Shown piece by piece: positions 1,511-22,352 of a stretch of 64,000 nt of DNA (positions within the stretch are counted from its first letter, which is position 1; every line of letters starts with the position of its first letter). This stretch comes from a virus. The stretch is from the IMG/VR virus record IMGVR_UViG_3300027743_000001, positions 22,543 through 86,542 of that record; one strand, 5' to 3'. Under the pieces are notes generated by a model that worked only from the letters and a program-made list of their open reading frames with translations, ran no database searches and was not told where the DNA came from. The position numbers and the translations under genes were made by a program.

Positions 1511-3163
1511 TTACGGTGTAGCCGCACCGGCGCAGCAGTAGCCCGTGTCGTCGAGCGGAGAAGTGATCCACAGCGGCAGTCCGCCGACGTTGGCCACGCT
1601 CTCGAAGATCTCGGAGAACTGCATATAGTCGTTCGTCCGGACCAACGTGGAGTCCCGGATGAGACCGAGGTCCAGCGTGCCGCCGTCGAGCAGGAGCAGG
1701 GAGCCCTCAGGGTAGAGCGCCCACTGAACCTGGCTCGGGAAGTCCGGCAGAGGCACCGGAGTCGCCAGCGCGGCCTCATCGAAGGGCAGGTAGAACCCGC
1801 CCGGAGGAGCCGTAGTGGCGCCGCCGCCCGCGTCTGCCGCCGGCAGGGATGTGGTCGGCTGCCACGTGTCCAGGGACCACGTCACCGTGATGCCAAGATC
1901 GTTGAGGATACTGTTCAGCTCAGCCTCGGACATCGAGTAGTTGTCGGAGAGCCGGGCCGTCGAGTTCTCAGCCGTGACACTGTCGGAGACCATCAGGTCG
2001 CGGAACCACGACGGGATGATCGCGTGCAGCCGCTCGTTGTCAACCAGCCGGTTGACATCCCTCAGGTAGGCCGCCGCCCGGTGGACCGTGCGGATGAAGT
2101 CCCGGATCGCGCCGTACGCGACGGCCGGGCCGGTCACCAGCTTGGAGAGCGACTTGATCTGCGCCAGGAGCACCGACTCGGCGAACCGTGCCTGCTGAAC
2201 CCGGAGCATCTGGGTATTGGCCGTGACCATCTCCGGGAAGATCCGGGACTGGAGCACGCCGAACTTGATACACATCGTGATGGCCTGAACCTCGGCTGTC
2301 TGCTCCGGCGGGCAGTCCGCGCGGATACAAACCTTCCAGGTCAACTCGTCGGCCGGGTCAACGGCTTCGTCGTCATCACAGGTCCAGACAGCGACGCCGC
2401 CGGTCACGTCCGAGAGCTTAGGCCCTTGGAAGTACCGGATGCCGCCACGGTCTGCCTGAAAACCGGGGAGCGCGCCGCGCACCGGCCGGTCCGTGTCGCC
2501 GATCGTGTAGAGGTCGTAGCGGGTCTCCAGCGGAGCGCAGCAGCCGCCGGCCGCCACGATCGCCTTGGTGCTGGTCACTGCCTCGATCTTGGCCTTGTTG
2601 CCTTCCAGGTCACCGTTGTAGAGAATGCGGTCTTCCGGCGCCTTCGTTTTGATGGACGCCACGACCACCTTCTCGCCAGTGCCACCGCTCAGGCCGTGGA
2701 GGGTCCGAATGCGCTTGGTGAAAGCGTCAGCGAAGTCCTTCAGGGTCGGAATTACGGTTCCTGCCGAGTAGCCCGGGATGTCAGCACCAGCGACCACCGT
2801 ACTGGTGGGCGCCACGGTAACCGGCTCGCGGTCACGCGGAACGGTCAGAGCGCCGCCTGTCTGCTGCTCCACCGGGTCACCTTCCTTTACGTCGTTGTTC
2901 TCCTCCACAGCTGCCACCAGCTGCGGTTCCACTACTGCCGCCGGCATAGCCTCGGCCGGAGCTTCTTCCTCGCCGCCACCCTCAGCACGCTTAGCCAGCT
3001 CAGCCGCCACCTGGTCCAGCGCCTCAGCGAGGCTGGCCATGAGCGCGTCGTCGGCTGCCTGGTCGGCCGCGTCAAACGCGGCTGTGATCTCGGACTGAAG
3101 ATTGGTCAAGTCTTCGTCAGTGAGCGTGGCAAGAGCTGCGAGCTTCTCCGCGAACTCGTCCAT
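1511..3163 (-). CDS. Major capsid protein with N-terminal scaffold-like region
   Basis: Acidic helical N-terminus, IVAAGGCCAP motif, LDLGLIRDSTLVRTNDY near the C-terminus as in cluster-B-like capsids; RBS AAGGAGG; follows the protease gene. Confidence 0.85.
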   Translation of the reverse strand: MDEFAEKLAALATLTDEDLTNLQSEITAAFDAADQAADDALMASLAEALDQVAAELAKRAEGGGEEEAPAEAMPAAVVEPQLVAAVEENNDVKEGDPVEQQTGGALTVPRDREPVTVAPTSTVVAGADIPGYSAGTVIPTLKDFADAFTKRIRTLHGLSGGTGEKVVVASIKTKAPEDRILYNGDLEGNKAKIEAVTSTKAIVAAGGCCAPLETRYDLYTIGDTDRPVRGALPGFQADRGGIRYFQGPKLSDVTGGVAVWTCDDDEAVDPADELTWKVCIRADCPPEQTAEVQAITMCIKFGVLQSRIFPEMVTANTQMLRVQQARFAESVLLAQIKSLSKLVTGPAVAYGAIRDFIRTVHRAAAYLRDVNRLVDNERLHAIIPSWFRDLMVSDSVTAENSTARLSDNYSMSEAELNSILNDLGITVTWSLDTWQPTTSLPAADAGGGATTAPPGGFYLPFDEAALATPVPLPDFPSQVQWALYPEGSLLLLDGGTLDLGLIRDSTLVRTNDYMQFSEIFESVANVGGLPLWITSPLDDTGYCCAGAATP

Positions 3164-6493: not shown

Positions 6494-6727
6494 CTAGACT
6501 TTCGTGTTGTCCTTGATCCACTCGTTCACGGTAGCTTCGTCGGTCTCTTTCCATCCTGGCTCATCGTGGATCTCCAGGAACAGCCGATCTTGATCTTCCT
6601 GCCACTTCCCATCTTTCCAGAACTCGGTCTCCGTGGTTTTCGGCCAGCCCCAGCGAGCCACTAACAGCGGCTCTCCGGTCTGTTTGCTCTTGTACATGAA
6701 CCATGCTGTCGGTTCCATCACCATCAT
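6494..6727 (-). CDS. Small acidic Trp-rich protein, candidate immunity protein
   Basis: ATGA-coupled to the stop of the RelA/SpoT-domain gene; 77 aa. Confidence 0.5.
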   Translation of the reverse strand: MMVMEPTAWFMYKSKQTGEPLLVARWGWPKTTETEFWKDGKWQEDQDRLFLEIHDEPGWKETDEATVNEWIKDNTKV

Positions 6728-8748
6728 CCTCTCATCACTGCTGCTACATTTCCTACATCGGCAGGACGCTCCAAGGGTTTAGAGATTTCGAACATCTGCC
6801 GCTCCAGCTCCTCCCAGGGTGGGCTGTGCTTTACCAGCTTCCGCTGCCGCTCGTAGAGCAAATGCTGCCTGTCCTTGGCCCGTTGGGACTCAGGGGTGTG
6901 GAACTGGAGTTCAAACCGATGTCCATCGGGACCGGTGATGTCGGCGTTAATGCCCTTGTAAGCGCGTCCCTCGTTATTCCAGGAGTTGCTGACATCTACG
7001 TCATAGCCCTTGGCTCTCAGCTCGTTGATCACCCGCTGAGCGTTGGCCCCGAAGTTCTCCGGGTCATAATGCAGAGTATACCGCAAGGCATCACCGATCT
7101 CACCAGCGGCCTGCTCAGGCCCGCCGGGCAGCTTGGCCCCCTTGCTTGCGATCTTCCGGACTAGGCTGCCCTCAGTCTTCAGCCTGAACTCGCCGCCGTA
7201 GAACTGTCCATTGTCTCCGATGATCTTGCTCGGGTCATAGTCGAGACCATCAACACCGCTGATCTCACTAAGCAGGCGACTAACTACCGGTTCATCGGCC
7301 TCTACGCCAGCCAGGATCTTCCTAGCCTCGTCTTGACTCTCTGCTCCTCTTGTCACAAGCGAACGACCTGTTTCCTGCGCCCCAGTGTTCACGGGTTTTT
7401 TGTTCCTCAAGATCGCAATAGCTCGTGGAGCGTCTGAAAGTTTGTCTACGATCTGCTGTGTAGGGATTATCTCGGGGAACCCGGCTGCCGGGTCGGCTGC
7501 TTTGGGATTGCCTAGGGCATCCACGTATTCGAGCTTGGCCCCGTTCGGGGTTAGGTCAACCACCTGTGCCCGACGCCGGGCGGCGCTGCGATCACCAGGG
7601 AGTGAGTCCGGATCGGAGAACACGTTCACCATGCCGAACTTCTCGATGAACTTCCCATCCTTGCCACGGGGGTGCAGCCAATCTCTCCAGTCGATGGCCG
7701 CGATGATGGCCGGGTGATCCAGCAGCCTGTGCTCCCGCGCCCGCATGATGAAGGATCCGAAGAACCCCAGCGGCTCCGTGCCGTTGACGCACAGCTGCAC
7801 GTATTGCTTGGCAGCAGCCACGACAGCTGACGCTGCCGTGGCTTCCTCAAAAGGGAGGATGACCCCGTCATCAGCAGTAGGGAACTCCGGGAGCACCTCC
7901 GGGGCCACCTTACCCAGCTGCCACTCCTGCGGGATCTTGTCTAGCGCGCCGAGAGCATGAGCCCGTTTGACCACGTACCACCGGCTATCAGGGTGCATGA
8001 TGGCGTAGCGCACGGCTATCGGGAGATCTTCCGCCCGGTTGACAGAAGGGATGCTGTTACCTGCTGCCACGACTGCGGTCTCCTGTTCAAGCGGTGCCGG
8101 AACCTCTCCCGGCATCTCGATGGTCTCTACCTCGCCCTGCGTCTTGGTGGGCAGGTCTGCCACGCTGACCGTTGTGCCGCTGGCATCGCCCGCGTCCCAC
8201 ACCGCCAGGGCGGACGGGGCAACCTGCACCAGTGACATGTCATCCAGAGCCGTGTTGCCCTCAGGGAGCAGGATCCACTCCCCGTCATACCGCACGTAGG
8301 CTCCCATGCCCGTCTCGATAATCAGTGTGACTACTGTGTTGTCGGGTGCGACCACAGCGTCCAGTTGGAGTGCCAACATTCCTCCCCTCATTATGTGAGC
8401 CTCAACCACTGCGAGCGGCTGCGGTACACCGGCGTCTGGTGCCATGGTCACTGCGTCATATGGATCCAGCGGTCGGATCCGTAGTGTCTCATCCGCTGCC
8501 TCAGGGTTTGAGAAGATGGCCGTCGCCGTCAGGACACCGCCGCCCATGTCAACCGGCTCGGAGATAAAGGTGCCCCGGGTGTTGTCCTCATCTTCATCCC
8601 ACACCAGCATGAGACCGTTGTCGCCGGTCTGAATCTCGACGTTGGCCCCGTAGCGGATCGAGGTCGTGTCGTACCGCGCCGAGGTGACCGGATCAGTCCT
8701 GTGGATGGTCACCTCGATGATGGCCGGATTAGGGACTCTCATGATCAC
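6724..8748 (-). CDS. Head-region protein with C-terminal RelA/SpoT-type alarmone synthetase domain
   Basis: EFRLKTEGSLVRKI, DALRYT, YKGIN, FELQFHTPES and HLLYE motifs in the last ~150 aa. Confidence 0.75.
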   Translation of the reverse strand: MIMRVPNPAIIEVTIHRTDPVTSARYDTTSIRYGANVEIQTGDNGLMLVWDEDEDNTRGTFISEPVDMGGGVLTATAIFSNPEAADETLRIRPLDPYDAVTMAPDAGVPQPLAVVEAHIMRGGMLALQLDAVVAPDNTVVTLIIETGMGAYVRYDGEWILLPEGNTALDDMSLVQVAPSALAVWDAGDASGTTVSVADLPTKTQGEVETIEMPGEVPAPLEQETAVVAAGNSIPSVNRAEDLPIAVRYAIMHPDSRWYVVKRAHALGALDKIPQEWQLGKVAPEVLPEFPTADDGVILPFEEATAASAVVAAAKQYVQLCVNGTEPLGFFGSFIMRAREHRLLDHPAIIAAIDWRDWLHPRGKDGKFIEKFGMVNVFSDPDSLPGDRSAARRRAQVVDLTPNGAKLEYVDALGNPKAADPAAGFPEIIPTQQIVDKLSDAPRAIAILRNKKPVNTGAQETGRSLVTRGAESQDEARKILAGVEADEPVVSRLLSEISGVDGLDYDPSKIIGDNGQFYGGEFRLKTEGSLVRKIASKGAKLPGGPEQAAGEIGDALRYTLHYDPENFGANAQRVINELRAKGYDVDVSNSWNNEGRAYKGINADITGPDGHRFELQFHTPESQRAKDRQHLLYERQRKLVKHSPPWEELERQMFEISKPLERPADVGNVAAVMRG

Positions 8749-11700
8749 ACCTCATAGCTTTCCGGCAGATCGAGCAAGTTGCGGAGGTTCGGAGGCATGT
8801 ACACGGGAGGCAGATCGGATGGCCGCATGGTCTTGGCCTTGGCTATGGTGACGATGTACCGCTCTAGCGGAACCCCGTTGATAGAGACAATCCCCTTGGC
8901 CTTCAGCTTCGCGATGGCCGAGTCGACTTCTTTCTGGCTCGGAGCCGCGATCATGCTGGCCTGCTCCGGAGCGATGCCACCGCTAATGTAGTAGTCCTTG
9001 ATGTTCTCCCATACCGTAAGGCTCCGCATGATGTTGCTGCCATTGTCAGGATTCCCGTACACATCCTCCAAGGAACCGCGCATGTCACCGATGCGACCGT
9101 AGAGAGCCTCAGGGTGGTGGTAAATCATGAGTCCACCGGAGATATATACAGCCTGGTCGTTGTGGTCCGGGAGGTAGTTGTACTTCTTGGCTGAGGCATA
9201 GGCGCCATGTCCGGCGTACACGCTGGAATCGTGGACTGCGGACTGCCCGAGTCCCTTACCAGTGGGAGCGTCCACGGCGCCCTGAAGCCGTTTGGTCATG
9301 CTGTTGACGTTGCCATACAGTGCTGTAGACGCAATGACATCCGCGTTGTTGCGCTTCGTGCCTTTGACCACAAGGTTCATCTTGCTCTTAGCCTTCATGG
9401 CAGCGATGGCTCGCTCAGACCAGAAGTAGGAAACCTTACCGATCGACTCATCAACGCCCACTCGAACGTCCTGCCAGCCCAGATCAGTGATACCCATCCA
9501 CTCTCCGGCCTTCTTGAACATCTGCTCATCCGACATGCCCTGTGTGTTGTCAGCGTTGGCCTGGTCGAAGCTGACCATAGTGGACAGGAAGACCCGCGCC
9601 TGCTGCTTGGCCGAAGACTGCGTCATGGGGGAGTAACCACCCAGGCCCAGCTCAGCCATGGCCGCCGAAAGATCCCCATCGGTTGCACCCTCAGGAAGGA
9701 AGATGTTGGTCATTCCAAACCGGGAGTCATTCTTGTACTCGCTGGCCGGGTCGATCACCTCTATGACAACCCCGTTGCTAGCTACCAGCCGCACATTGCG
9801 GGACGTGCCGAAGTCAGGAAATGCACTCTTCGCCAACGGGACACCCTGTCCCGGCTCCACATACAAGGTCCCGTCCGCCTGCATGCCAGACAGGCCGCCG
9901 TCTTGGGCGACGGTCCATCCCCTGGCCTGTGCCGACTGGCTCAATGAGAACTGGCCGGTCTGAAGTACCTTGATCTTGGTGGGGTCCCACGCGGTCACGG
10001 TGTAGGTGTGACCAGCAGACCACGGGGTAGTGACCGTGGACCCATCAGACAGGCTCTTGAAGGTCACTATCTTGCCGCCGGTAGCCGCGTCGTCCTGCAC
10101 GTCCACCACTTCGTAGTTCGGCGGGTTGACGCCAGAGTTGTCCGGCCGCCACTGGCTCTTGAGTTCCGGCTGGCTGCTGCTTGAAGGCCGGATAGATACC
10201 CTCTCGCCTACCGCGATGCTCTCCGTAGGCTTCTTGGTGCGTACCCAGTCGCCCTGCTCCTGTGTGTCACCACTAGCCAGGTTGCTGGCAAAGGTCGCAC
10301 GCTGCTCCTTGGAGAGAGCGAAGATCACCCGGTTGTACTTCTTACCGGACGGCCCGATCGCGCGGGTCGTGAACATCTCCCCACCCCGGATGCCGGTGGA
10401 GTTGGTGACGATCGCCCGCTGCTTGCCGTCCTGCAAGGTCTTGCCCAGCGCCTCGGCCGGCGTGTCAACCGCCAGCGCCATTCCCTTAGGAACCTCCAAC
10501 GGGGCCAGCGGCGCCTGGTAAGGGCCGTACTCTTCCGTGTCGAGCCGGAGCGCCGTGACCAGCCGTGTCGACTTCTCTCCGCTGCTGGTGAGGACCACCG
10601 CGCTCTGCTTGTTCTTGCTGAGGCTGATGATCTTGCCGTGCATCGGACCCTTGCCGGTGACGTGCATGCCCGCCGTAGGGATGTAGCCGTCCTTGGTGAG
10701 CGGGCCGCCCCACGCCAGCACCACGTCCTCACTAGGTGCGCCCGGCAGGCTGGGCTTTGGCTCGGCAACGGGAGGCTTAGCCGCGTAGACGGCATAGTTA
10801 GACGGCATCTTGTTGGTGAGGAACATGGAGTGCTTGCCTTGGTCAACTGCTACGGCGCCAGGCTCATGCCCCACAGAGTAGTGGTGGAAATCTATAAACT
10901 CACCATCTATCTGCACCATCTGCATGTATTCATTGGGCTTGTGGGGGTCCCCATAGGACACATAAATCCAGTCCCCAGGCTTCAGGTCCATACCCTTGAA
11001 GTCGGAGGCTAGGGTGATCTCCATGGTGCTCGGGTGGGGTGCCCCGATCGCGTCGTTGGCACCAGAGGCTGCCGTCTGAGGGAAGGCGCTCGGAGGAGCA
11101 ACTGACAGGTCAACCTTCTGCATGCCGGAGAAGTTGCTGCCATAGACTGCGAACTCAGCTTTCTCTAGCTTCTTGGTTTCGTAGTCCTGGTAGAGCTGGT
11201 ACATGAGCGGGTCGTCGGGGTCCGCGTTCGGGTCCGACACATAGACGTTGTACAGGGTCTTGTAGAGCTGCTCACCCGGCTGAAGCTCATACGTCTTGCC
11301 GTTGAACTCAATCCCAGTGACTGCCTCGACATCAACTATCTGCGGGCTGGCACTGACCGGACCAGGCCCGGAGAGGTCCGGGGGAGTCAGTGCGTCGTAC
11401 TCTCCCAGCGTTCCCTGCGCGACAGACATCTTGGCATCACCGATGCCGCCCTGCGCGAGGAAAGCCAGCACAGTGGACTCGTCATGGCCAACAGTGGTGT
11501 TGATAGTTCCGTCAGCGGAAATCGCGTTGTACTTGCCATCGGGCTGCTTGACCAGGTACTGATCCGGGATCGTCGGAGTCTGGATCTTGATGACGATGTC
11601 ATCCGGCTGAGTCGTCAAGCCGTTGAACGTGCCGCCCGTAGGTCCGACATTCGGGTCGGGGTTGAACAGCTTGTTGAACATCCCTTGAACGGAGGGGGCT

Positions 11701-14700
11701 TCAGCATCAGAAGCAGCCTGCGTGGGGAAGGGGGGCGGGTCACCCTCCGCCTGGTGGACCAACGTCTTCTTGTCGTTCGGCACCAGCCCCATGACGTGAT
11801 GGGTGATGGAGGCGCCGCCCAGCTGGCCGTCATCCTTGATCGGCCACCAGGATGCACCGGGAGCGGACTGGATGTAGTAGGTGTTTGAGTCAGATATGTA
11901 GACAACAGACTCCCAGCTGCTTACCTCATAGAAGCTGTTGATCTTATCGCCAGTGGCAACCTGATCCGGCACAGCAGGGGCGATGTCAACCACGTCAACC
12001 TGGTTGCTGAACGGGTCATGGTAGAGGTTGACCTGGTAAGGGCTGCCGTCTGAGTTGTACTTGTTGACGGTCGTGCTTACATCAATGGAGTCATCACCGT
12101 CTATGTGGTACCAGTTGGAGCTGGCCGGAGAGGCGATGTAATACTCATTGCCGATCTTGGCAACCTGGTTTCCGGACTGAACGGATACCTTGTACCCGTT
12201 CGGGAGAGTCAACTCCTCAGTGCCGGTCCCCTGGTGGAAGTTCTTCAGGCCCATGGGACCCTCTTGGTCGCCATCACCGACCCACGTGCCGCCCGTTCCG
12301 GCAGCGTTCACTGTCCACATCTGCCAGCCGGAAGTGGTGTGCCGACGCCAGAAGGTGCCCGACCCAGAGACAAAGATCGGATACTTCGCGTCGTCGTACT
12401 TGAGCGCCTGGTTGAGTGCCCAGCCGGCCGCGTCCTGGCCCTGGTTGCCGGTCAGCTTGTGGTCGTTTGTGGTACCCGGCCCGGCCTTCAGCTTCGTGGC
12501 CATATCATTAGCCGCGTCGATCTGGCCCTGCGTCAACTCAGCATCTATGTAGTCGGACCCCTTACGGGTCACCCGGATACTCACGTTCGGGCCGAAGTCC
12601 TGTTTGGACAGGAGCTGAGGTGAAACTGTGCCAGCGTCGACTACTACAGCTACCTTGTCATCTCCCAGAGGCAGGTTGTTCTCCACCACGACGAATAGGT
12701 ACTGGCCAGCTTCAACCTCATCTCCCGGTTCCAGGTGGGGGATGATCTGGTGAGCCGGAAGATAGGCACCGTCCTCATCGAAGATGCTGGTTTCGGTCTT
12801 CTCCACGAGCGGAGCATCTGCGTCGTACGTACCAACGGTGCCATCTGAGAAGGCCAGGTAAACAAGACTAGACCCTTCAGGGGCATCCACAAAGGTGACC
12901 ACTACGACGTCATCGCCGTTGTGCACCGACTCGCCCGGCTTCAGTCCCTGCGCGGGGACCATCGGGCCGCCGTGCGGACCCGTCGCCCCCGCAGACTCCG
13001 GCAAACCAGAAGACTCCGGGATGACCGTGGGGGTCGTGTCAACCGTGAAGTCATTCAGGACAGTTTTCAGTACGGTGAATGGAGTTTCGTTCTTGTCTAT
13101 CATCCGCACCGTCGTGTCGGTGATAGCGATGATCTCGTAGCTGTTGTCGGGGCTACTGATCGGGCTGACCTTGTGGCCGACCTTCAGCACGCCACTGTCG
13201 ATCCAGGCCGCCAGCGTCTTCGCCTCATCCACCTGGCTGACGGCCGTGACCGCCGGAGCCATGGGGGAAGGTGGCTCCGGCACCGATACCGGCTCAGGCT
13301 CAGGCTCCGGAGTCGTGTCAACCGTCGCTCCGGCTTCCTCCGTGATGGTCACCGTGCTGACTGACTTACGCTTGCGGACGCCGGACGTGTTCTCGATGAA
13401 CACGAACTTGCCGTCCGGGGAGATCATCACGATCTTGCCCTGGTGGCCGTCCTTGGCCAACGCCGTCATGCCGAGCTTAGGAACCTTGCCGTCCCCCGTC
13501 ATCGGGGTCTTGGCGCCCACCACGTTGGCCGCCGGGGTCTTGCCAGGCTGCGTCAGGGTTGACGCCGCCTTCATCAGCTCCTTGCCGTCTTCGTCCTTGA
13601 CGACAGCGCTGTAGCCCTTCTTCTTGACGTAGGTGTAGGTCTTCCCGTCCTTCTTGGAGACCACCTTCGCACCGGGTCCGGCCTCGGTACCGTCACCCAG
13701 AAGCATGCCCTTGTCATCGCTAACGACAGACTTAGCCTGCGCCTCGGCCGCCGCCTTGATGTCTTCCTTGACCTGCGTCTCTACGGTGGCAGCCATGCCG
13801 GTCTTCTGCGGCGGTTCCGATATCTCCACCTCAGGCTCCGGGACGGGCACCGGCTCCAGCAGCTGGACGATCTCCTCCACCTCGGCCTCGGCAGCCTCGG
13901 GGAGGTTCGGCTTCTGCGCTTCCGGCGGAGGCGGATCCCAGCGCTCCACGATGTAGGGGCCGGATCCCAGGGCGTAGGTGTCCAGGATTACCGATGTGGT
14001 GTTTCCCTTGTCCCGAAGCATGACCTTCTTTTTGGCGGGGGAAACTCCCATCACCTCATAGGTGTGGCCGTTCGGGTCGGTGATCGTGTCCCCGCGCTCG
14101 AACTTGATGGTGTGAAGATCAGCAGCATCCAGAGCGGCGCCATGGTGTGGCCGTTCCAGGTTGGTCAACGGGCTCTGGTAGTGGACATCCGTCTTAGAGC
14201 CGTACTTGTCCTTCAAGGCCCATCGCTGGTCTTGCAGCTCGTCCGGCTCCATCAGGCTGCCGTCAGTCAGGTCAACGCCGATCCTGATAGTTCCCGATCC
14301 GATCCGGACGTAGTCGCCAGGTGACGCCATATCCAGAGCTTGTCCGAGGTTCATCGGGAACCACTTGCGGGACAGGCCGTTGTTCTCGGCTACGTCCGGG
14401 ACGTTTATCGGCTTGGAGGCTTCCGGAAGCGGGAGTCCATAGTGGTCAGCAATGTACCTACGGCGCGACTTGAGCGTGTCAGCCAGGGACTGAGGTAGTC
14501 CACGCTCAGAAACCAGGTCATCAATTTCTTCCGGAGAGATAGCCAGAACCCGGACGGCGCCATCCAGCTCATCCTCCTTAGGCATCACGTTCTCGCCGAA
14601 GATGGCAGCCTTCTTACCGGACCGCATGGTCTCCAGCTCCATCACCTTGTTACCGAAGGCGCCGCCCTTAGGTTCGCCTTGAGCCCGGTAGGTGAGAGCC

Positions 14701-16937
14701 CCGCCGTTGTCGATCCGCCAGGACGTGCCTTCCTTGTCGACGAACACGTTGTCCCAACCGAGGCCGAAGACATCCCAGTTCGAGAGCCAAGCGTCAACGA
14801 CAAAGTTCTTGCGGATCTGTGTCAACCACTCCTTGTCCTTCAGCTTCTCATTGATCGTCTGGCTGAGTTCCTCGCCCTCCACGATCTCGGAGTAGATGTT
14901 CTTTCCGTCGTAGTCGACGTTCGGCACCGGGACGCCAGCCGCTGAGTACAGATCATTGGCCAGCTCCTCCACCTTGCCGTGATCTTGGCTCTTGGGCTTC
15001 TTGACGTAGAACTTCTTGGCCGGGCCGCCGGCAGGGTCCGGGATGCTGTACATCCCGCCTTCATTGCTGCCGCCCTGCCCGCCGATCTTCGTAGACCCAG
15101 CGTCATCCTTGGTGAGGTGGGCAATCTTCTTTGGCGCGCGGTAGACCTGGTTGGGGCGGAGCGTCAGCTCCTTCTCGCCCGGGGTCGGCGTGCCAGACAG
15201 GTCGGACGGCTGAACCTTCAACTCAGCTTTGTCGTCTGACCCCTTGAGTATGTCCTTGACCTGCCCGTACTTCCACTTGCCATTCTTCAGGAACTTGATG
15301 ATCCCGAACTTGTTAATGAACCGGCCGTCCGCGCCACGCGGGTGTTCCCACGGCTCGAAGGCAGGAGCGGCCACGATCGGTTCCAGGAGGGGTGTCACTT
15401 CGATGCTGTTGAACAGGCCCAGCTTCTCCCAGCCGGTACCGTCGTCAGCCAGGGAGGCGTACATGACGTTGTTGCCGTACTCGTCGTCAACCGTGATATA
15501 GGTCTTCTCGTCTTCCCAGCCGGGGCCATGTGTGACCTTCATGGAGACGGTGTTGGGGTCGTCGTGCGCTCCGGTAAAAGCGAAATCGAACTTGCTCTCC
15601 CCGACCCAGAGAGAGATCGTGTCAAAGGATACTGTGGACGGAAGATGGCTCGGGTCTGTGACCTCGATCAGGAAGTCGTTGCCGTAGCCCAGAGTGATGT
15701 GGGGTATCCACTCCGGGTGCTGCTCAACCGTGCTCATCTGGTAGGCAACAACCGGGTCTGCAACGACAGCATCCCTCACACACGACAGTGCCACGTCCTC
15801 AAGCAGGAGCACCGCCGCGTCGTGGTCCCCCAGCCGGCCCCGCCCGTTCACCTCGGTCTCGATCGGGGTGCACTGCTTGGCCAGGTCGCCGAGACACTTG
15901 AGCACGTGATCCAGTTCGTCGGTTGACATGTCAGCGCTGAGGTAAGCCAGGGTCACGTGCGGGTCGTCGTCCACTACGAGCGCATTGACCGGGTCGTCAG
16001 CTGAGGTACGGCAAACGATCACCGCCGTAGGCAGCTCCTCCACCGGCTCCATCTCGTCCAGGATCAGGTCCGCGAGCAGTGCCTGAGGGAAGTTGTGCCC
16101 GACCGGCGGCCCGTAGTCGTACCCCATCGTGTAGTCAAAGACGAACGGGGAGAGGTCGGCCGATCCGGTGATCGCGTTCAGCTCCTTGGTGCGCCGCTTC
16201 ACCTCATTAGATGCTCTCTTGACACGGGCTTTAGAGATCCTGACTTCTAGTTCCTGCATCTTCCTGCGGGCGCGTAGAGTGCGCAGCTCTTTGACCCCCT
16301 TGGGGGTCAATCCAGGTTGTCCGCTAGCGGTGTCAGACGCCTTCTCAAGCTCCTTGATCCGGGCATCATGTTGTCCAACCTCTGCTTGCTGCTTAACCAG
16401 CGACGCTTTCTGGATCTCCAGTGCGTCTTGCGCCCGTTCAATGCTGAGCTTGGCCTTTGCCTTGGAAGCCTTCAGTCTCTTCGCCTTGTTTGCTGCCGAG
16501 GTTCCGGAACCCTTGGAGGAGCCACCCCCGCCGCCGCCGCCGGACTTCTTCTTGACTCCGCCCTCATCCTTTGCCTTGGAGAGATCTTGGTTGAAGTATT
16601 TGGCCAGCACGTTGAGGGTCTGCACGTTGAGCGTGCCCGTGGGCTTCAGGCCCAGCCCAGTCTGATAGTCCTTGAGCGCCCGTGCGGTCTCCGGGCCGAA
16701 GTAGCCAGTGGCTGGCAGGTTGTAGCCGGCTCGCCGGAGCGCTTCCTGCAGCCGGGTGACGGCCGGCCCTTGTGCTCCGACCCCTAGGCCACCATCTTTT
16801 GTGCTGCCCTGACCGGACGTGCTGAACTTGCCGCCCGTGTCCCGCTTGACCTGTGACTCCTCGAAAGCGCGTAGCCGCTGGTTCGGGTCCTTGGCCCGAC
16901 TCGGCCGCTCCCGCCTCTGTTGGCCTGGTTGCGTCAC
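8745..16937 (-). CDS. Giant 2730-aa multidomain head-region protein (peptidoglycan-binding, 2H phosphoesterase, PI3/4K- or HipA-like kinase, SH3-like repeats)
   Basis: VTRLQEALRRAGY...GYFGPETARALKDYQ; HVTLAY and HITLGY; GSNEGG/FYVKK/DAWLSNWD/RIDNGG; lies directly after the portal gene. Confidence 0.8.
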   Translation of the reverse strand: MTQPGQQRRERPSRAKDPNQRLRAFEESQVKRDTGGKFSTSGQGSTKDGGLGVGAQGPAVTRLQEALRRAGYNLPATGYFGPETARALKDYQTGLGLKPTGTLNVQTLNVLAKYFNQDLSKAKDEGGVKKKSGGGGGGGSSKGSGTSAANKAKRLKASKAKAKLSIERAQDALEIQKASLVKQQAEVGQHDARIKELEKASDTASGQPGLTPKGVKELRTLRARRKMQELEVRISKARVKRASNEVKRRTKELNAITGSADLSPFVFDYTMGYDYGPPVGHNFPQALLADLILDEMEPVEELPTAVIVCRTSADDPVNALVVDDDPHVTLAYLSADMSTDELDHVLKCLGDLAKQCTPIETEVNGRGRLGDHDAAVLLLEDVALSCVRDAVVADPVVAYQMSTVEQHPEWIPHITLGYGNDFLIEVTDPSHLPSTVSFDTISLWVGESKFDFAFTGAHDDPNTVSMKVTHGPGWEDEKTYITVDDEYGNNVMYASLADDGTGWEKLGLFNSIEVTPLLEPIVAAPAFEPWEHPRGADGRFINKFGIIKFLKNGKWKYGQVKDILKGSDDKAELKVQPSDLSGTPTPGEKELTLRPNQVYRAPKKIAHLTKDDAGSTKIGGQGGSNEGGMYSIPDPAGGPAKKFYVKKPKSQDHGKVEELANDLYSAAGVPVPNVDYDGKNIYSEIVEGEELSQTINEKLKDKEWLTQIRKNFVVDAWLSNWDVFGLGWDNVFVDKEGTSWRIDNGGALTYRAQGEPKGGAFGNKVMELETMRSGKKAAIFGENVMPKEDELDGAVRVLAISPEEIDDLVSERGLPQSLADTLKSRRRYIADHYGLPLPEASKPINVPDVAENNGLSRKWFPMNLGQALDMASPGDYVRIGSGTIRIGVDLTDGSLMEPDELQDQRWALKDKYGSKTDVHYQSPLTNLERPHHGAALDAADLHTIKFERGDTITDPNGHTYEVMGVSPAKKKVMLRDKGNTTSVILDTYALGSGPYIVERWDPPPPEAQKPNLPEAAEAEVEEIVQLLEPVPVPEPEVEISEPPQKTGMAATVETQVKEDIKAAAEAQAKSVVSDDKGMLLGDGTEAGPGAKVVSKKDGKTYTYVKKKGYSAVVKDEDGKELMKAASTLTQPGKTPAANVVGAKTPMTGDGKVPKLGMTALAKDGHQGKIVMISPDGKFVFIENTSGVRKRKSVSTVTITEEAGATVDTTPEPEPEPVSVPEPPSPMAPAVTAVSQVDEAKTLAAWIDSGVLKVGHKVSPISSPDNSYEIIAITDTTVRMIDKNETPFTVLKTVLNDFTVDTTPTVIPESSGLPESAGATGPHGGPMVPAQGLKPGESVHNGDDVVVVTFVDAPEGSSLVYLAFSDGTVGTYDADAPLVEKTETSIFDEDGAYLPAHQIIPHLEPGDEVEAGQYLFVVVENNLPLGDDKVAVVVDAGTVSPQLLSKQDFGPNVSIRVTRKGSDYIDAELTQGQIDAANDMATKLKAGPGTTNDHKLTGNQGQDAAGWALNQALKYDDAKYPIFVSGSGTFWRRHTTSGWQMWTVNAAGTGGTWVGDGDQEGPMGLKNFHQGTGTEELTLPNGYKVSVQSGNQVAKIGNEYYIASPASSNWYHIDGDDSIDVSTTVNKYNSDGSPYQVNLYHDPFSNQVDVVDIAPAVPDQVATGDKINSFYEVSSWESVVYISDSNTYYIQSAPGASWWPIKDDGQLGGASITHHVMGLVPNDKKTLVHQAEGDPPPFPTQAASDAEAPSVQGMFNKLFNPDPNVGPTGGTFNGLTTQPDDIVIKIQTPTIPDQYLVKQPDGKYNAISADGTINTTVGHDESTVLAFLAQGGIGDAKMSVAQGTLGEYDALTPPDLSGPGPVSASPQIVDVEAVTGIEFNGKTYELQPGEQLYKTLYNVYVSDPNADPDDPLMYQLYQDYETKKLEKAEFAVYGSNFSGMQKVDLSVAPPSAFPQTAASGANDAIGAPHPSTMEITLASDFKGMDLKPGDWIYVSYGDPHKPNEYMQMVQIDGEFIDFHHYSVGHEPGAVAVDQGKHSMFLTNKMPSNYAVYAAKPPVAEPKPSLPGAPSEDVVLAWGGPLTKDGYIPTAGMHVTGKGPMHGKIISLSKNKQSAVVLTSSGEKSTRLVTALRLDTEEYGPYQAPLAPLEVPKGMALAVDTPAEALGKTLQDGKQRAIVTNSTGIRGGEMFTTRAIGPSGKKYNRVIFALSKEQRATFASNLASGDTQEQGDWVRTKKPTESIAVGERVSIRPSSSSQPELKSQWRPDNSGVNPPNYEVVDVQDDAATGGKIVTFKSLSDGSTVTTPWSAGHTYTVTAWDPTKIKVLQTGQFSLSQSAQARGWTVAQDGGLSGMQADGTLYVEPGQGVPLAKSAFPDFGTSRNVRLVASNGVVIEVIDPASEYKNDSRFGMTNIFLPEGATDGDLSAAMAELGLGGYSPMTQSSAKQQARVFLSTMVSFDQANADNTQGMSDEQMFKKAGEWMGITDLGWQDVRVGVDESIGKVSYFWSERAIAAMKAKSKMNLVVKGTKRNNADVIASTALYGNVNSMTKRLQGAVDAPTGKGLGQSAVHDSSVYAGHGAYASAKKYNYLPDHNDQAVYISGGLMIYHHPEALYGRIGDMRGSLEDVYGNPDNGSNIMRSLTVWENIKDYYISGGIAPEQASMIAAPSQKEVDSAIAKLKAKGIVSINGVPLERYIVTIAKAKTMRPSDLPPVYMPPNLRNLLDLPESYEV

Positions 16938-16939
16938 GG

Positions 16940-18439
16940 TCAGCCTCCAAGAATCTGCTGCGCTGAGTCAGGCATCGGGACTGGAGATTCTGCTACGTTC
17001 TGTTCCCGCTCGGCCTCCAGCACGTTGGGAAGCGCCACGTTCAGCAGGGCTACCGTTACGTCCGGTGGCAACATTCCCTTGGAGGCAACCAGCATGAGCG
17101 CCAGCTCCTGCTCCGTGGGAGCATCCGTCTCGGCCAGCCCGTTCTCCCGGCGCCATGCCTTGGGTCCGACCAGGAAGTGCTCAAACCCGATTGTCACTTC
17201 CTCGGACTGGTTGGGCCGGGTCACGATCTGGGAGGGGTCGTACCAAACCACAACGCGGCCGACAGCTGCCGGCTCGAACCCCTCGGCCAGCAGTCTGGTG
17301 CGGAGGTACATTTCCGTGGTTGCATCCGACAGCGCCAGCGCCAGCGGCTCAATGTTGGCCTTGTACAGGTTGTCATCGATGACCACCGCGTTGCTGTACT
17401 TGACGGCCGCCAGGCCGGCCACCATTTCCTTGGGAACGTCGATGCCCTGAAGGATGCGTTCCAGGGAGCGCTCCGCCCGGTTGACAAGCCACTCATCGCT
17501 GCTGCGCTCGAACGTCAGGTGTCGGATGGAGGAACCCTGATCGCTTGGCCCGGTCACCACCATGGGAACTACGGAGCTAGCACTGCCTTCGTCCGAGACG
17601 GGGGTGACCATAGCGTCCATCAGCTCGGCCACGAAAGCGTTGCCGGGGTCTACTACGGCCTGCTCACCATCTGTCTCGTCTGCGTTTGCCACGGTGGCCG
17701 AGGCGACCGTGATGCCATCCGGAACGAAAAGAAGGCCGGCATTCAGCCGGCTGCGGGTCGCCGAGCGGACCAGCCGCTGGAGCATCAGCAGCTCCTCGAT
17801 GGAGTCCGTGAGCGCCATCAGCGAGGAGTCCGGCTCCTTGGAATACTCCGGGTGCTCACGCCACACCCGAGCTATGTAGGTGCTTGTTGGCAGCGGCTTC
17901 TGTTCTCCACCACGTAGCGGCTGATACAGGACTGAGTTCTGTTCTACCTTGACTTCCTTTGTGGACTTGAACGCCCACTCTCCGCTGCCCGGCATCTGCA
18001 TGAAGTAGACCTCGCCGGCCACGTTCATGTTGAGAGCGAAGGACCGAACCTTAGAGCTGAAGTTGGAGGTCGTGAACTCCAGCATGATCTCCTGAGCGCG
18101 CTTGGCCAGGTCGTCGTCAACCAGGCCCTTCTCCGCTGCCTCCGTGATAGAGGTCGGTGCCTGCTCCGGGTCCAGCACCACGGCCGGGTAGAGTCGGATC
18201 CGGGAGAGGATGCTGCCGACCAGGTTGAACCCGTAGTGGATCTCTCCCACCCGCTCGTACCCGATCCAGGCGTCGGTCTGCCAGACCTCCCAGGGACGCG
18301 AGCCCGGCTGCATCTCTTTGACCTTGATGCGCTCGGTTGAAGCCGTAATAGGGCGTTGCGCGTTGTATGGCGCCGCTTTGGCCGGGCGCGCAGCTGACGG
18401 CTTGTCGGCGCGGGGATTATCGCGTGTGAAGAGGCCCAT
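16940..18439 (-). CDS. Portal protein
   Basis: WQTDAW..YERVGE, VAGEVY, RVWREHP...DS and RSRLNAGLLFVP motifs of actinophage portals; 499 aa; position after terminase. Confidence 0.85.
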   Translation of the reverse strand: MGLFTRDNPRADKPSAARPAKAAPYNAQRPITASTERIKVKEMQPGSRPWEVWQTDAWIGYERVGEIHYGFNLVGSILSRIRLYPAVVLDPEQAPTSITEAAEKGLVDDDLAKRAQEIMLEFTTSNFSSKVRSFALNMNVAGEVYFMQMPGSGEWAFKSTKEVKVEQNSVLYQPLRGGEQKPLPTSTYIARVWREHPEYSKEPDSSLMALTDSIEELLMLQRLVRSATRSRLNAGLLFVPDGITVASATVANADETDGEQAVVDPGNAFVAELMDAMVTPVSDEGSASSVVPMVVTGPSDQGSSIRHLTFERSSDEWLVNRAERSLERILQGIDVPKEMVAGLAAVKYSNAVVIDDNLYKANIEPLALALSDATTEMYLRTRLLAEGFEPAAVGRVVVWYDPSQIVTRPNQSEEVTIGFEHFLVGPKAWRRENGLAETDAPTEQELALMLVASKGMLPPDVTVALLNVALPNVLEAEREQNVAESPVPMPDSAQQILGG

Positions 18440-20166: not shown

Positions 20167-20832
20167 CTAGGGATGGAATGTCAACCAACACCGGCATCCG
20201 ATCACTTCGTCCAGCGGAGCGCTTGGGTCTCCAGGGAACCGAAGTTCGATCCCTTCTGGTGTCACAAAGTTGTCGGAGATCGGTACGGTACTACCGGGGT
20301 AGTTTCGCGATCCAAGTATTGCATGAGAGGTTCGTACCCTGGTATCCCCGACGTTATGCCACCGCTTACGGGTCAGCCCGATCTCGTCGGCCGCCGCCAT
20401 CTGAGCGGAGGAGATCACCGCGTGGGCTACCAGGTTGTGCAGCCGCTCCGGATCCAGGTAGTCGGGGGTCTCGCCCGGGGCCGGGGGGTCATCGTGAACG
20501 CTTCTCACAACTGCCTTGGCCGCCTTGACCAGCGTTTGCATCCCGGCATCATGGCCAGCCTCACGGCCTCGGTCAGAAGCGGCCAGCAGTGCCTCAGCGC
20601 GCCGTGCGGGGGAGGCGTCCCGCTGTCTGGCCAGAGCACGATCGGCCACCCCGTAGAGCGCACCGCCGATCGTCTCCGGGAGCCCGAGCGTGCCAGCGAT
20701 CTTCTGCCAGGATCCTGTCACCGTGCCGCTGGTGGCACCGTAAGCAGCGTAAGCCGCTAGTACCACAGCCAGCGCGGGGAGCAGAGAGTTGGCTTCCTCT
20801 TCCTGCTCCTCCGGTGGGTTTGGCTGTGTCAT
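20167..20832 (-). CDS. MuF-like minor head protein
   Basis: KRWHNVGDTRVRTSH...LRFPGDPSAPLDEVIGCRC signature. Confidence 0.85.
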   Translation of the reverse strand: MTQPNPPEEQEEEANSLLPALAVVLAAYAAYGATSGTVTGSWQKIAGTLGLPETIGGALYGVADRALARQRDASPARRAEALLAASDRGREAGHDAGMQTLVKAAKAVVRSVHDDPPAPGETPDYLDPERLHNLVAHAVISSAQMAAADEIGLTRKRWHNVGDTRVRTSHAILGSRNYPGSTVPISDNFVTPEGIELRFPGDPSAPLDEVIGCRCWLTFHP

Positions 20833-22352
20833 AGCTGTCTCCCGCGCCGCCGGTTCGGGATGCCCCGAGCGATCGTCAGGCTACCCGTGTTGCGCCCCTG
20901 GTGGGTGAACTTGATGAAGCCGGCCGGCCGCTGCGTAACCGTCCGGGTCGTGGCCGAGCCGGGAGCGCCGCCCTTCAGCGCATCGGGGAAGAGAGCCGCC
21001 GCCAGAGCCCAGCCGGCCGCGTCCATCCGGTCGGGGGAGTAGCCGGACTCTCCCGGCACCCAGCTGGTCTCCTGATCTTCCAGGTCCGTGAAGTATCCGA
21101 CGTGGTGAACGCGGCCTTTCTCGTATGCTGCAGCTACCGGGCCGAACCGCACAGCCTTCTGAGCGGTTGCCCATACCTCACGGACCGGCGGAGGAGTGGT
21201 GTTGGCGTGACTGGCAGCCTGACGGATCACCCGCTTGACCAGAGCGCCGCCCTGGTTGGTCTCTACGATCACCGTCGCTTGGTGCTCACGAGCCGCCTTG
21301 ATGACCTCATCACCCCACACCGATGGGGAGGCCCGGAGAGAGTAGTCGGCTATCACGTAAGCGTGCCGCTTGAGGACGGGGTGCGTAAGTGGCACCGCTA
21401 CCACGACGATGCCGCACTCATCGTTGGGCCTCTCGGCAACCGAGGGGTCGACGCCCACGTAGAAGGCCCATCGGACGCCCGGCAGAGTCGGCGTGTTGGT
21501 TACCCGGAACGCTTCTATTGTGGACTCGGATACCTGCGCTCCATCCACCTCATCCAGCATCACACCTTCCAGCTCCTGCTGGCCCAAGGTGGTGCCGTCG
21601 TAGAGGTCCATGAGCACGTCGAGATATACGGCGGACAGGTAAGGGTTGGACTTCGTTGCCATGTTCTTGAGCAGGATTCTCTTGGCTGGGTCCTTCGCGT
21701 CCGCGATCAGTTTGCGCAGCAGAGCCACCCGCTTAGGGGTGGTCGCCGCAAGGATCTGCGGAAGCCTTCCCATACGGGTGCCGATACGCAGGTTGTCCCA
21801 CGCTGTAAGGCCGTCCACGCCAGGCTTCCACTTGTGCGCGGCCAGTTCATCCGCCACGCCGATGTGGAACGCCGGGCCACGTAGCTGGTCAGGTTCCTCA
21901 GCCGAGAATGTCAAGAGGTTGCCACCGTAAGGGAGTTCCACGAGACGCCGGGACGGAATCCAGTTCAGTGCGTCTACTTCAGACGGTGGGTAGATGTTCA
22001 TGAGACCGGACGGACCCTCAAGCAAAATGTCCCGGACGTCGGCTGCAGTACGGCCGAGCAGCGCTCCCTTGAGCGGCCGGCCAGGGTCGCGGCCCAGCTT
22101 GGCCCAGTTCTTGTCCAGGTCCCGGATCCACTCGGTCATGGCCCGTGACTTGCCGGCTCCACGGCCGCCGAGCAGGAGCGCTACAGAGAAATCCTCGCCG
22201 CCGTCTTCCTTGCGGGTCGGCACGATCTGAGACGGCCGGCCCATGAACTCCCAGCTGTAGAGCAGCTCCATCGGATCCAGCCCAGCAAGAGCCTCGGCCT
22301 GCTCCTCCGGAGGAAGGGCCGCCAGCTGCTGCTCCAGCGAGAGATCTAACAT
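20829..22352 (-). CDS. terL: Terminase large subunit
   Basis: Walker A GGRGAGKS, Walker B VADE, ATTP coupling motif, nuclease VGVDP and PDRMDA. Confidence 0.95.
   Translation of the reverse strand: MLDLSLEQQLAALPPEEQAEALAGLDPMELLYSWEFMGRPSQIVPTRKEDGGEDFSVALLLGGRGAGKSRAMTEWIRDLDKNWAKLGRDPGRPLKGALLGRTAADVRDILLEGPSGLMNIYPPSEVDALNWIPSRRLVELPYGGNLLTFSAEEPDQLRGPAFHIGVADELAAHKWKPGVDGLTAWDNLRIGTRMGRLPQILAATTPKRVALLRKLIADAKDPAKRILLKNMATKSNPYLSAVYLDVLMDLYDGTTLGQQELEGVMLDEVDGAQVSESTIEAFRVTNTPTLPGVRWAFYVGVDPSVAERPNDECGIVVVAVPLTHPVLKRHAYVIADYSLRASPSVWGDEVIKAAREHQATVIVETNQGGALVKRVIRQAASHANTTPPPVREVWATAQKAVRFGPVAAAYEKGRVHHVGYFTDLEDQETSWVPGESGYSPDRMDAAGWALAAALFPDALKGGAPGSATTRTVTQRPAGFIKFTHQGRNTGSLTIARGIPNRRRGRQL

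Follow-up and report, generated by a model that had tools for sequence, protein, structure and literature searches.

A 2730-residue phage protein encoded beside the portal gene joins a 2H phosphoesterase, a CtkA/HipA-like kinase and a family-specific C-terminal module, and is probably delivered by the virion

The window analysed here is a stretch of 64,000 nucleotides (positions 22,543 to 86,542 of IMG/VR record IMGVR_UViG_3300027743_000001) from a phage genome of 86.5 kb that is complete, carries terminal repeats and is no evident prophage. On its minus strand, an open reading frame of 2730 aa (P0001) begins with a GTG start, preceded by GGAGG at a distance of 6 nt, and translates without internal stops; the mass of the product, very roughly estimated, is 290 kDa, which makes it a large cargo. 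The frame begins 2 nt past the end of the portal gene, and its stop codon overlaps the GTG of the next gene. TerL, portal, protease, major head and major tail genes surround it, all on the same strand. In all six related IMG/VR contigs, the giant gene follows immediately on a portal homologue, and gene 78 of Gordonia phage Forza, next after the portal gene, begins with the homologous module. A preliminary description had placed the gene between portal and protease; the portal is indeed the adjacent upstream gene, but the protease lies two genes on, with a 674-aa gene intervening. A tape measure protein, considered for its size, was rejected, as the gene sits between portal and head protease; outside the window, past the major tail gene, there is a separate tape-measure-like frame of 980 aa. 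P0001 contains four Cys in 2730 residues, all within the 2H domain, and nine of 11 giant relatives have none at all, a scarcity that is not peculiar to P0001 in this genome (portal 0/502, tape-measure-like frame 0/980, both counted in stop-to-stop frames). The features are, from the portal downstream:

16940..18439 (-), portal gene, directly upstream of the giant gene (phrog_776, E 8.7e-88)
8745..16937 (-), whole giant gene P0001, 2730 codons plus stop (ORF list and translation)
16605..16772 (-), PG_binding_1 domain, residues 56-111 (Pfam, E 2e-14)
15528..16052 (-), 2H phosphoesterase domain, residues 296-470, with HxT at 326-328 and 413-415 (PF13563)
15126..15380 (-), tag module, residues 520-604: IVAA, HPRGADGRFINKFG (from residue 532) and a small beta-barrel (motif and model)
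14430..15125 (-), protein-kinase-like domain of CtkA/HipA type, residues ~605-836 (fold match and invariant residues)
13287..14417 (-), family-conserved region, residues 841-1217, with a barrel copy at 1145-1198 (BLAST and barrel HMM)
10752..13286 (-), variable beta-rich middle, residues 1218-2062, with a short repeat of varying copy number (poor alignment between relatives)
8748..10751 (-), family-specific C-terminal module, residues 2063-2730 (homologue search, AF2 and fold matches)
8820..9416 (-), possible ADP-ribosyltransferase fold, residues 2508-2706 (fold match)
8748..8819 (-), conserved C-terminal peptide DLPPVxxPxNxRxxLDLPxSYE (alignment of 22 sequences)
6724..8748 (-), next gene, 674 aa, with HPRGxDGKFIEKFG at residue 359 and a RelA/SpoT-like C-terminus (similarity and profiles)

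The PG_binding_1 match reaches 53.9 bits (cut-off 23). This stretch is also hit by PHROG endolysin families, and NCBIfam returns on P0001 only partial matches of peptidoglycan-binding type. The domain sits in an N-terminal extension of 295 residues that also holds a Gly run and a Lys/Arg-rich stretch, and this extension is restricted to the phage studied here and a close relative (L041), whose N-terminal 300 aa are 69% identical to those of P0001. In the more distant full-length relatives, the alignment begins only at P0001 residue 296-304. Since all seven lack the extension, peptidoglycan binding is not a core function of the family.

The next domain belongs, by its sequence, to the 2H superfamily. 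It carries two HxT motifs, H326-V-T (nt 15962-15954) and H413-I-T (nt 15701-15693), which are invariant in all six aligned family sequences and lie where they had been noted before, and the Pfam profile 2_5_RNA_ligase2 (PF13563) matches residues 323-445 above its cut-off (E 7.4e-7, 29.8 bits versus 27). When the family profile was searched against the PDB, the LigT-like archaeal protein PH0099 came first (E 5e-5), followed by weak matches that include Acb1, rotavirus VP3 and a poxvirus cGAMP phosphodiesterase. Acb1 (7t26_A) came up at E 0.093, with an alignment of 31 residues about the second HxT, and the domain searched against the PDB as a single sequence gave nothing useful and no Acb1 at E<=10. 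For such 2H domains, either an RNase role or the degradation of signal nucleotides has been proposed (Iyer et al., 2017; PMC5512222). The second of these options would suit an anti-CBASS nuclease that cleaves cyclic oligonucleotide signals on entry, the analogy drawn in the preliminary description, and the domain shares its fold class and the HxT/HxT tetrad with Acb1 (Hobbs et al., 2022; PMC9117128), which is among the weak matches together with VP3 and the poxvirus enzyme. However, the closest structure is LigT-like, the match to Acb1 is short, and the HxT motifs are spaced by 87 residues in P0001 but by 69 in Acb1 (H44/H113; PMC9117128). The analogy did not hold up at this level, and an Acb1-type activity appears unlikely; neither search shows a significant sequence relation to the Acb1 family.

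The kinase-like domain has, in the predicted structure, a bilobal protein-kinase fold that is closest to the Ser/Thr kinases CtkA of Helicobacter pylori (3akk) and HipA of E. coli (2wiu), with which it shares 11-15% identity; its catalytic loop has a longer insert, from D722 to N730, than those of CtkA and HipA. Six residues (K646, E657, N720, D722, N730 and D743) do not vary across 28 members and, judged from the secondary structure of the model, are the ATP-binding Lys/Glu, the catalytic-loop Asp/Asn and the metal-binding Asp. The alignment used (A2) comprises 26 of 35 loci, omitting L016 (a stop inside the match), L040 and, as apparent duplicates with identical match statistics, L017, L023, L027, L030, L031, L033 and L036. 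Sequence searches reach this relationship less well: against the PDB, the family profile gave designed 'Cake' proteins at E 0.018 and CtkA at a non-significant E of 3.9, and the region as a single sequence gave 0 matches. Neither HipA_C nor HipA_2 of Pfam matches P0001 above cut-off, with weak matches to HipA_C in 4 (best E 0.0029) and to HipA_2 in 3 of the 28 members. A homologue search restricted to near-length matches found only four proteins with this region, and a single-sequence locus scan found three.

The same kinase also occurs in 39 longer proteins (423-2000 aa). Of these, 20 join it to a MuF, portal or minor-capsid domain (17 with Phage_Mu_F, 2 with Phage_portal_3 and 1 with PF06152), although Phage_Mu_F (PF04233) belongs to what we take to be the same Pfam clan as the ADP-ribosyltransferases, so that kinase carriers matching both PF04233 and PF03496 may contain a single ART-like stretch instead of a structural MuF domain. 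Within the same set, 15 carry ADPrib_exo_Tox and 10 NUDIX; one protein (P0012) unites portal, NUDIX, this kinase and a weak ART match in a single chain. In five Arthrobacter phage records, the sequence that the 2H domain matches is annotated as portal or as capsid maturation protease.

Between the 2H and kinase domains lies a short module that P0001 shares with its neighbour. Only two real ORFs of the genome, P0001 and the adjacent gene of 674 aa, contain the motif HPRGxDG[KR]FIxKFG, and the tag module is locally similar to this neighbour at E 4e-9; its beta strands are found at model residues 27-81. The neighbour carries a RelA/SpoT-like toxin domain and matches the XopAD C-terminal region of NCBIfam (E 3.6e-25) and phrog_7625, 'head morphogenesis' (E 7e-14). 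An h-h-A-A motif stands 10-14 residues upstream of the tag in 11 of 14 tags examined. Global enrichment of h-h-A-A in P0001 was rejected, with 4 sites versus 2.0 +/- 1.3 in shuffles, so that proteolytic processing is a guess. A complex prediction of portal (7-row alignment) and tag plus barrel (6-row alignment) gave no answer in either direction, at a score of 0.02 against a mark of 0.32.

A BLAST block from residue 300 to 1217, which reaches past the kinase, is common to the relatives P0002, P0003, P0005, P0007 and P0008 (in one piece) and to P0004 and P0006 (in two pieces). A barrel HMM matches residues 1145-1198 (iE 7e-7). A repeat HMM finds three copies in P0001, one of them (1087-1114) just outside the variable middle, and 51 copies in eight family proteins. 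The four domain calls of the preliminary description, among them the peptidoglycan-binding domain, the 2H phosphoesterase and the kinase-like domain, were all correct.

The C-terminal module runs through a Tudor/KOW-like barrel (2071-2137), an alpha+beta part, an EF-P-like barrel (2230-2318), an alpha/beta part, an ART-like part and the terminal peptide, and its AF2 model has a pLDDT of 83.8. Among 1.84e9 representatives it has 34 matches, nearly all of them C-terminal in proteins of 1700-3400 aa or in fragments. No Pfam family is found in any of 22 members at E<=1. The C-terminal domain of about 550 aa, suggested earlier as perhaps undescribed, is a family-restricted module that is 668 aa long and consists of several domains rather than one. 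The alignment (A4) includes 21 relatives, selected by length and by spread (4 loci, 7 typed parts and 10 short proteins in full), and omits P0024, P0028 and P0036. In an unbiased scan of 48,161 chains, the last ~200 residues had DarT1 as top match (166 of 208 DarT1 residues covered), and the DarT ssDNA ADP-ribosyltransferases (8baq, 7omv, 7omu and 7yk3) are the known enzymes closest to this part. Conserved features in the alignment of 22 sequences are an Arg in strand 1, a G-S-[YF]-x-S strand and acidic residues. An ADP-ribosyltransferase fold for residues 2508-2706 is possible on this model. Family profiles do not show one, with no ART family in the 22 members at E<=1 and no match to DarT (PF14487) in the genome at E<=10. 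Other searches gave little: the C-terminal profile found in the PDB only antibody light chains at E 0.05 and above (chance), Foldseek of the model against BFVD gave no clear match, with uniformly low TM-scores, and the only hints for residues 2330-2730 from the protein Atlas were weak ones with scores of 0.83-0.88, among them clusters with DUF3841, DUF3626 and Shigella_OspC. The motif of the terminal peptide is found nowhere else in the genome.

What is established here (the gene with its domains and folds, its catalytic residues and their conservation, and its contexts in genomes and fusions) is probably best explained by a virion-delivered toolkit, a reading based on the gene position, the kinase fusions to portal and MuF and the tag shared with the neighbour. 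P0001 is probably a late-expressed polyvalent protein of the head module that brings several host-directed enzymes, is packaged and is injected; its packaging, processing, ejection and every substrate are what we infer. It would be built into the procapsid beside the portal, although P0001 contains no MuF, portal or other known head-anchoring domain of Pfam. The head protease may cut it at junctions, for instance at the IVAA that precedes the HPRG motif, and P0001 would then be ejected with the DNA, the lineage-specific peptidoglycan-binding domain engaging the cell wall during exit. In the cell, three activities would act ahead of all phage gene expression: the 2H phosphoesterase may cleave RNA or a 2',3'-cyclic, 2'-5' or cyclic-oligonucleotide substrate, the kinase may phosphorylate host proteins, and the C-terminal module may hit a further target, possibly as an ADP-ribosyltransferase. 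A phage kinase that broadly disarms defences is on record for T7 (PMC13645617).

A bolder, joint reading takes the ~85-residue combination of h-h-A-A, HPRGxDG(K/R)FIxKFG and barrel as a portable tag for capsid loading and processing of any enzyme, serving both the giant and the RelA/SpoT-like toxin. Cargo would be kept almost free of Cys to allow its threading, unfolded, through the tail, and the C-terminal module would be a new injected DarT-related ADP-ribosyltransferase with its own docking peptide. This combination is offered tentatively, and it is clearly less probable than packaging and injection as such. Among the literature matches listed, subscription journals aside, no paper describes the HPRG tag or a CtkA/HipA-like kinase as phage head cargo.

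Alternatively, P0001 could be made late and remain unpackaged, its enzymes acting in the producing cell or, released by lysis, on neighbouring bacteria. A position in the late operon is no proof of incorporation by itself, the neighbour gene bears a RelA/SpoT-like toxin domain, and MuF polymorphic toxins have been discussed as weapons of competition (Jamet et al., 2017; PMC5576092). However, the kinase-portal fusions put the same kinase physically into the capsid of those phages, the genome is that of a complete phage rather than an evident prophage, and the gene is tightly coupled in translation to that of the portal. We give this explanation little weight.

It is similarly improbable that P0001 is in essence a structural ejection protein, in which a beta-rich chain anchors to peptidoglycan and helps to build a DNA conduit, with the enzymes as add-ons. 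The internal core proteins of T7 provide a parallel for such a conduit across the envelope. The N-terminal peptidoglycan-binding domain, ~1200 barrel- or repeat-rich residues whose length differs between relatives, and the very low Cys content would fit. However, the conserved parts of P0001 are the enzymes and the C-terminal module, and Pfam finds neither a transmembrane nor a lytic domain in it. An RNA-repair unit, with the 2H domain as cyclic phosphodiesterase and the kinase healing tRNA ends cut by host anticodon nucleases, is very improbable: LigT-type 2H enzymes do act on 2',3'-cyclic ends, and the closest relative with a solved structure is LigT-like, but the kinase has a protein-kinase fold rather than that of a P-loop polynucleotide kinase, Pfam finds no RNA ligase domain in P0001, and the polyvalent type of 2H domain is never associated with RNA ligases according to Iyer et al. 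(PMC5512222).

If packaged and injected as proposed, the enzymes would act before phage genes are read and would be the first answer of the phage to host defences. P0001 joins a CtkA/HipA-like kinase, a 2H phosphoesterase and a module known from 34 representative proteins, and it is a source of concrete, separable domains in which new counter-defence activities can be assayed. Together with its tagged neighbour, it forms a compact system for testing how foreign enzymes are loaded into capsids, and it points to a clade of CtkA/HipA-like kinases as a common head-associated cargo (fused in this way in 20 of 39 longer relatives).

Several known systems resemble P0001 in part. Acb1 is a stand-alone protein of ~150 aa (Hobbs et al., 2022; PMC9117128), whereas the 2H domain of P0001, alike by sequence in fold class and HxT/HxT tetrad, is part of a giant. 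The main text of that paper never uses the word 'virion'. The MuF/SPP1 gp7 toxins share with P0001 the place after the portal and a variable enzymatic cargo, and often have a RelA/SpoT-type toxin domain such as that in the neighbour of P0001 (Jamet et al., 2017; PMC5576092). However, they are far smaller, and the phage of P0001 has a complete genome bounded by terminal repeats and is no evident temperate prophage; Phage_Mu_F (PF04233) matches neither P0001 at E<=1 nor the 674-aa neighbour at E<=0.01.

The closest comparison is with the polyvalent proteins of phages, which carry 2H, kinase, ART and cell-wall domains and for which packaging and injection were predicted, with T4 Alt and the N4 vRNAP cited as packaged precedents (Iyer et al., 2017; PMC5512222). 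T4 Alt is at the same time a packaged ART precedent for the possible ART of P0001. Like these proteins, P0001 has many effector domains in one chain: at least two unrelated ones are present (PG_binding_1, 2H and the kinase fold, with a possible ART), in a portal-terminase phage and among the virion genes. There are also differences. The kinase clade of Iyer et al. has lost the C-terminal subdomain and comes mainly from (pro)phages of Verrucomicrobia-Chlamydia and Bacteroidetes, whereas the kinase of P0001 retains helices of the C-lobe and has CtkA/HipA as its closest relatives in fold. The cell-wall part of P0001 is a binding domain, and that of the polyvalent proteins a lysozyme or peptidase (PMC5512222). 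Neither the 668-aa C-terminal module nor the HPRG-plus-barrel tag was found mentioned in Iyer et al. (2017), supplements aside. As the polyvalent principle was already described there, the value of P0001 lies in its particular parts.

Gene order, kinase fusions, a shared tag and low cysteine content all point, indirectly, to the giant protein P0001 as head cargo. Its gene is stop-free over 2730 codons (ORF listing and translation) and starts at a GTG two bases past the stop of the upstream gene, with GGAGG six bases 5' of the GTG; the GTG that starts the following gene (674 aa) overlaps the stop of the giant gene. The window is part of one contig of 86,542 bp, catalogued as a viral genome that has direct terminal repeats and is an estimated 100% complete, and G+C is ~0.60-0.67 across the sequence. 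The preliminary description was accurate in what it observed of P0001, while its interpretation, a virion-delivered toolkit acting on cyclic nucleotides and host targets, is supported in part only. It placed the gene between the portal and the protease, which is almost correct: the portal adjoins, but the 674-aa gene intervenes before the protease. The features are, in gene order:

20829-22352 (-), large terminase, first in order (Pfam Terminase_6N and 6C)
16940-18439 (-), portal, directly upstream of P0001 (phrog_776, E 8.7e-88)
8745..16937 (-), giant gene of P0001, between the portal and the 674-aa gene
15365-15376 (-), IVAA (h-h-A-A) at P0001 residues 521-524, upstream of the HPRG motif
6724-8748 (-), 674-aa gene, directly after P0001
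4051-6465 (-), 804-aa protein whose residues 517-692 are a head maturation protease domain, after the 674-aa gene
1511-3163 (-), major head protein, after the 804-aa protein
(-), major tail protein, last in the listed order

In the 804-aa protein, ~500 residues at the N-terminus are unassigned, and a stretch at the C-terminus is acidic and rich in Pro and Glu. At 22365-24167 (-), just upstream of the terminase gene and apart from the tail genes, lies the gene of a collagen-repeat protein of 600 aa, which matches Pfam Collagen at E 5e-10 and tail-fibre PHROGs. A role for P0001 as tape measure was rejected, because that role probably falls to a separate 980-aa frame, past the tail gene and outside the window.

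The association with the portal recurs elsewhere. In all six related contigs the gene immediately upstream of the giant one is a portal homologue, and gene 78 of Gordonia phage Forza, directly after the portal gene, opens with a homologous tag-plus-kinase module. Longer proteins carrying the P0001-type kinase (n=39) contain Phage_Mu_F in 17 cases, a portal domain in 2 and PF06152 in 1; an ADP-ribosyltransferase (ART) exotoxin domain is found in 15 of the same proteins, NUDIX in 10 and 2H in 3. The giant relative P0012 unites portal, NUDIX, kinase and a weak ART match in a single chain. The Phage_Mu_F and ART families belong to one Pfam clan, so in entries listing both, the two matches may be to a single stretch, a caveat that does not touch the portal fusions. 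The kinase also occurs outside MuF and portal contexts: P0074 and P0080 (1642 and 1712 aa) combine it with SNF2-type helicase domains (PF00176, PF00270, PF04851) and PF18823.

Two real ORFs of the genome, and no others, contain the tag HPRGxDG[KR]FIxKFG: P0001 at residue 532 and the 674-aa neighbour at residue 359, where it reads HPRGxDGKFIEKFG; the two proteins also resemble each other over ~30 residues around it (pairwise E 4e-9). At its C-terminal end the neighbour has a RelA/SpoT-like domain matching the C-terminus of the XopAD/skwp type III effectors (NF041399, E 3.6e-25), also matches phrog_7625 'head morphogenesis', and appears to be another tagged cargo gene. In 11 of the 14 tags examined, h-h-A-A precedes HPRG by 10-14 residues, and the ending is AA or AAA in 6 of 7 family proteins; together, placement and endings hint at a candidate processing site, which may serve the head protease. 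Across P0001 as a whole h-h-A-A is not enriched (4 sites vs 2.0 +/- 1.3 in shuffled sequences). Cysteine scarcity is a suggestive signal of cargo. P0001 has four cysteines in 2730 residues, all within the 2H domain, and 9 of its 11 giant relatives have none; among 35 kinase loci, the frame is open over the whole fetched stretch (1639-2250 aa) in 20, of which 19 lack cysteine. The signal is not specific, since cysteine is likewise absent from the portal (0 of 502) and from the tape-measure-like frame (0 of 980) of this phage.

The kinase-like part of P0001 received no name from any annotation library searched. The 35 related IMG/VR loci were gathered with a small alignment, and the kinase alignment of 28 sequences comprises 26 of them, one protein and the window sequence. 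The predicted model of residues 520-860 (pLDDT 83.5, pTM 0.78) gives at least 500 Foldseek matches, and among the 50 listed all are protein-kinase-like enzymes, including PI4KB, VPS34, PI3K, CtkA, macrolide/aminoglycoside phosphotransferases and ERK2. K646, E657, N720/D722/N730 and D743, invariant in 28/28 sequences, are placed in the model like the ATP lysine, helix-C glutamate, catalytic loop and metal-binding aspartate. Weak HipA_C matches in 4/28 members and HipA_2 matches in 3/28 agree with the fold result. It is concluded that the domain is a predicted active phosphotransferase of the HipA/CtkA branch.

Both N-terminal domains named in the preliminary description were recovered: PG_binding_1 (Pfam, residues 56-111, E 2e-14) and a 2'-5' RNA ligase/2H domain (Pfam, residues 323-445, 29.8 bits vs a cut-off of 27), whose two HxT motifs (residues 326-328 and 413-415) are invariant among six aligned family sequences and fall at the positions given in the preliminary description. 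Residues 1-295 comprise the PG-binding domain, a glycine run and a Lys/Arg-rich stretch. They are common only to the closest relative, L041 (69% identity), which marks the extension as real coding sequence and a recent addition; all seven full-length relatives start at the 2H domain. By eye, residues 24-40 (16818-16868 (-)) hold a degenerate tag copy, FEESQVKRDTGGKFS, which is conserved in L041, resembles the HPRDxxGKF copies in P0012 and is not detected by the tag HMM.

The seven full-length relatives (2308-3163 aa, 38-47% identity, word-indexed search), several of them on contigs of ~52-86 kb where size is listed, share residues 300-1217 and 2063-2730 with P0001. The latter, C-terminal module matches 34 proteins at E<=0.001 in an exhaustive HMMER search of 1.84 billion representative proteins, nearly all at the C-terminus of 1700-3400-aa proteins or in fragments. 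Pfam gives no family match among 22 members, and a PDB profile search no real match. The model from the 22-row alignment is confident (pLDDT 83.8, pTM 0.74) and predicts, in order, barrel, alpha+beta, barrel, alpha/beta and a last domain. In the alignment, the last domain conserves a strand with an Arg-Gly/Ala end (Arg in 18 of the 21 rows covering the position; Lys in the window sequence, L041 and P0017), a G-S-[YF]-x-S strand and a set of acidic residues, which would be compatible with an ART site and are not diagnostic of one. The Pfam DarT model has no match in the genome. The final 24 residues form a strongly conserved peptide, DLPPVxxPxNxRxxLDLPxSYE, with no second occurrence in the genome.

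Acb1 shares with the P0001 domain the 2H fold class and HxT tetrad (PMC9117128), but matches its profile at only E 0.093, behind a LigT-like protein (E 5e-5). For 2H domains, RNase action or degradation of defence-signal nucleotides has been proposed in the work that defined polyvalent proteins, which includes 2H, kinase, ART and cell-wall-directed domains in their repertoire, notes 2H fused to MuF and portal, and predicts packaging and injection on the models of T4 Alt and N4 vRNAP (Iyer et al., 2017; PMC5512222). The kinase clade described there is without the C-terminal subdomain and mainly from other bacterial lineages; the P0001 kinase is of a different branch. Functional precedent for a phage kinase comes from T7, whose kinase is described as broadly disarming defences via phosphorylation (2026; PMC13645617). 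Particular to P0001 are the CtkA/HipA-like kinase as widespread, putative head cargo, the lineage-specific PG-binding extension, and a rare C-terminal module that, as modelled, possibly has a DarT-like fold and carries the terminal peptide.
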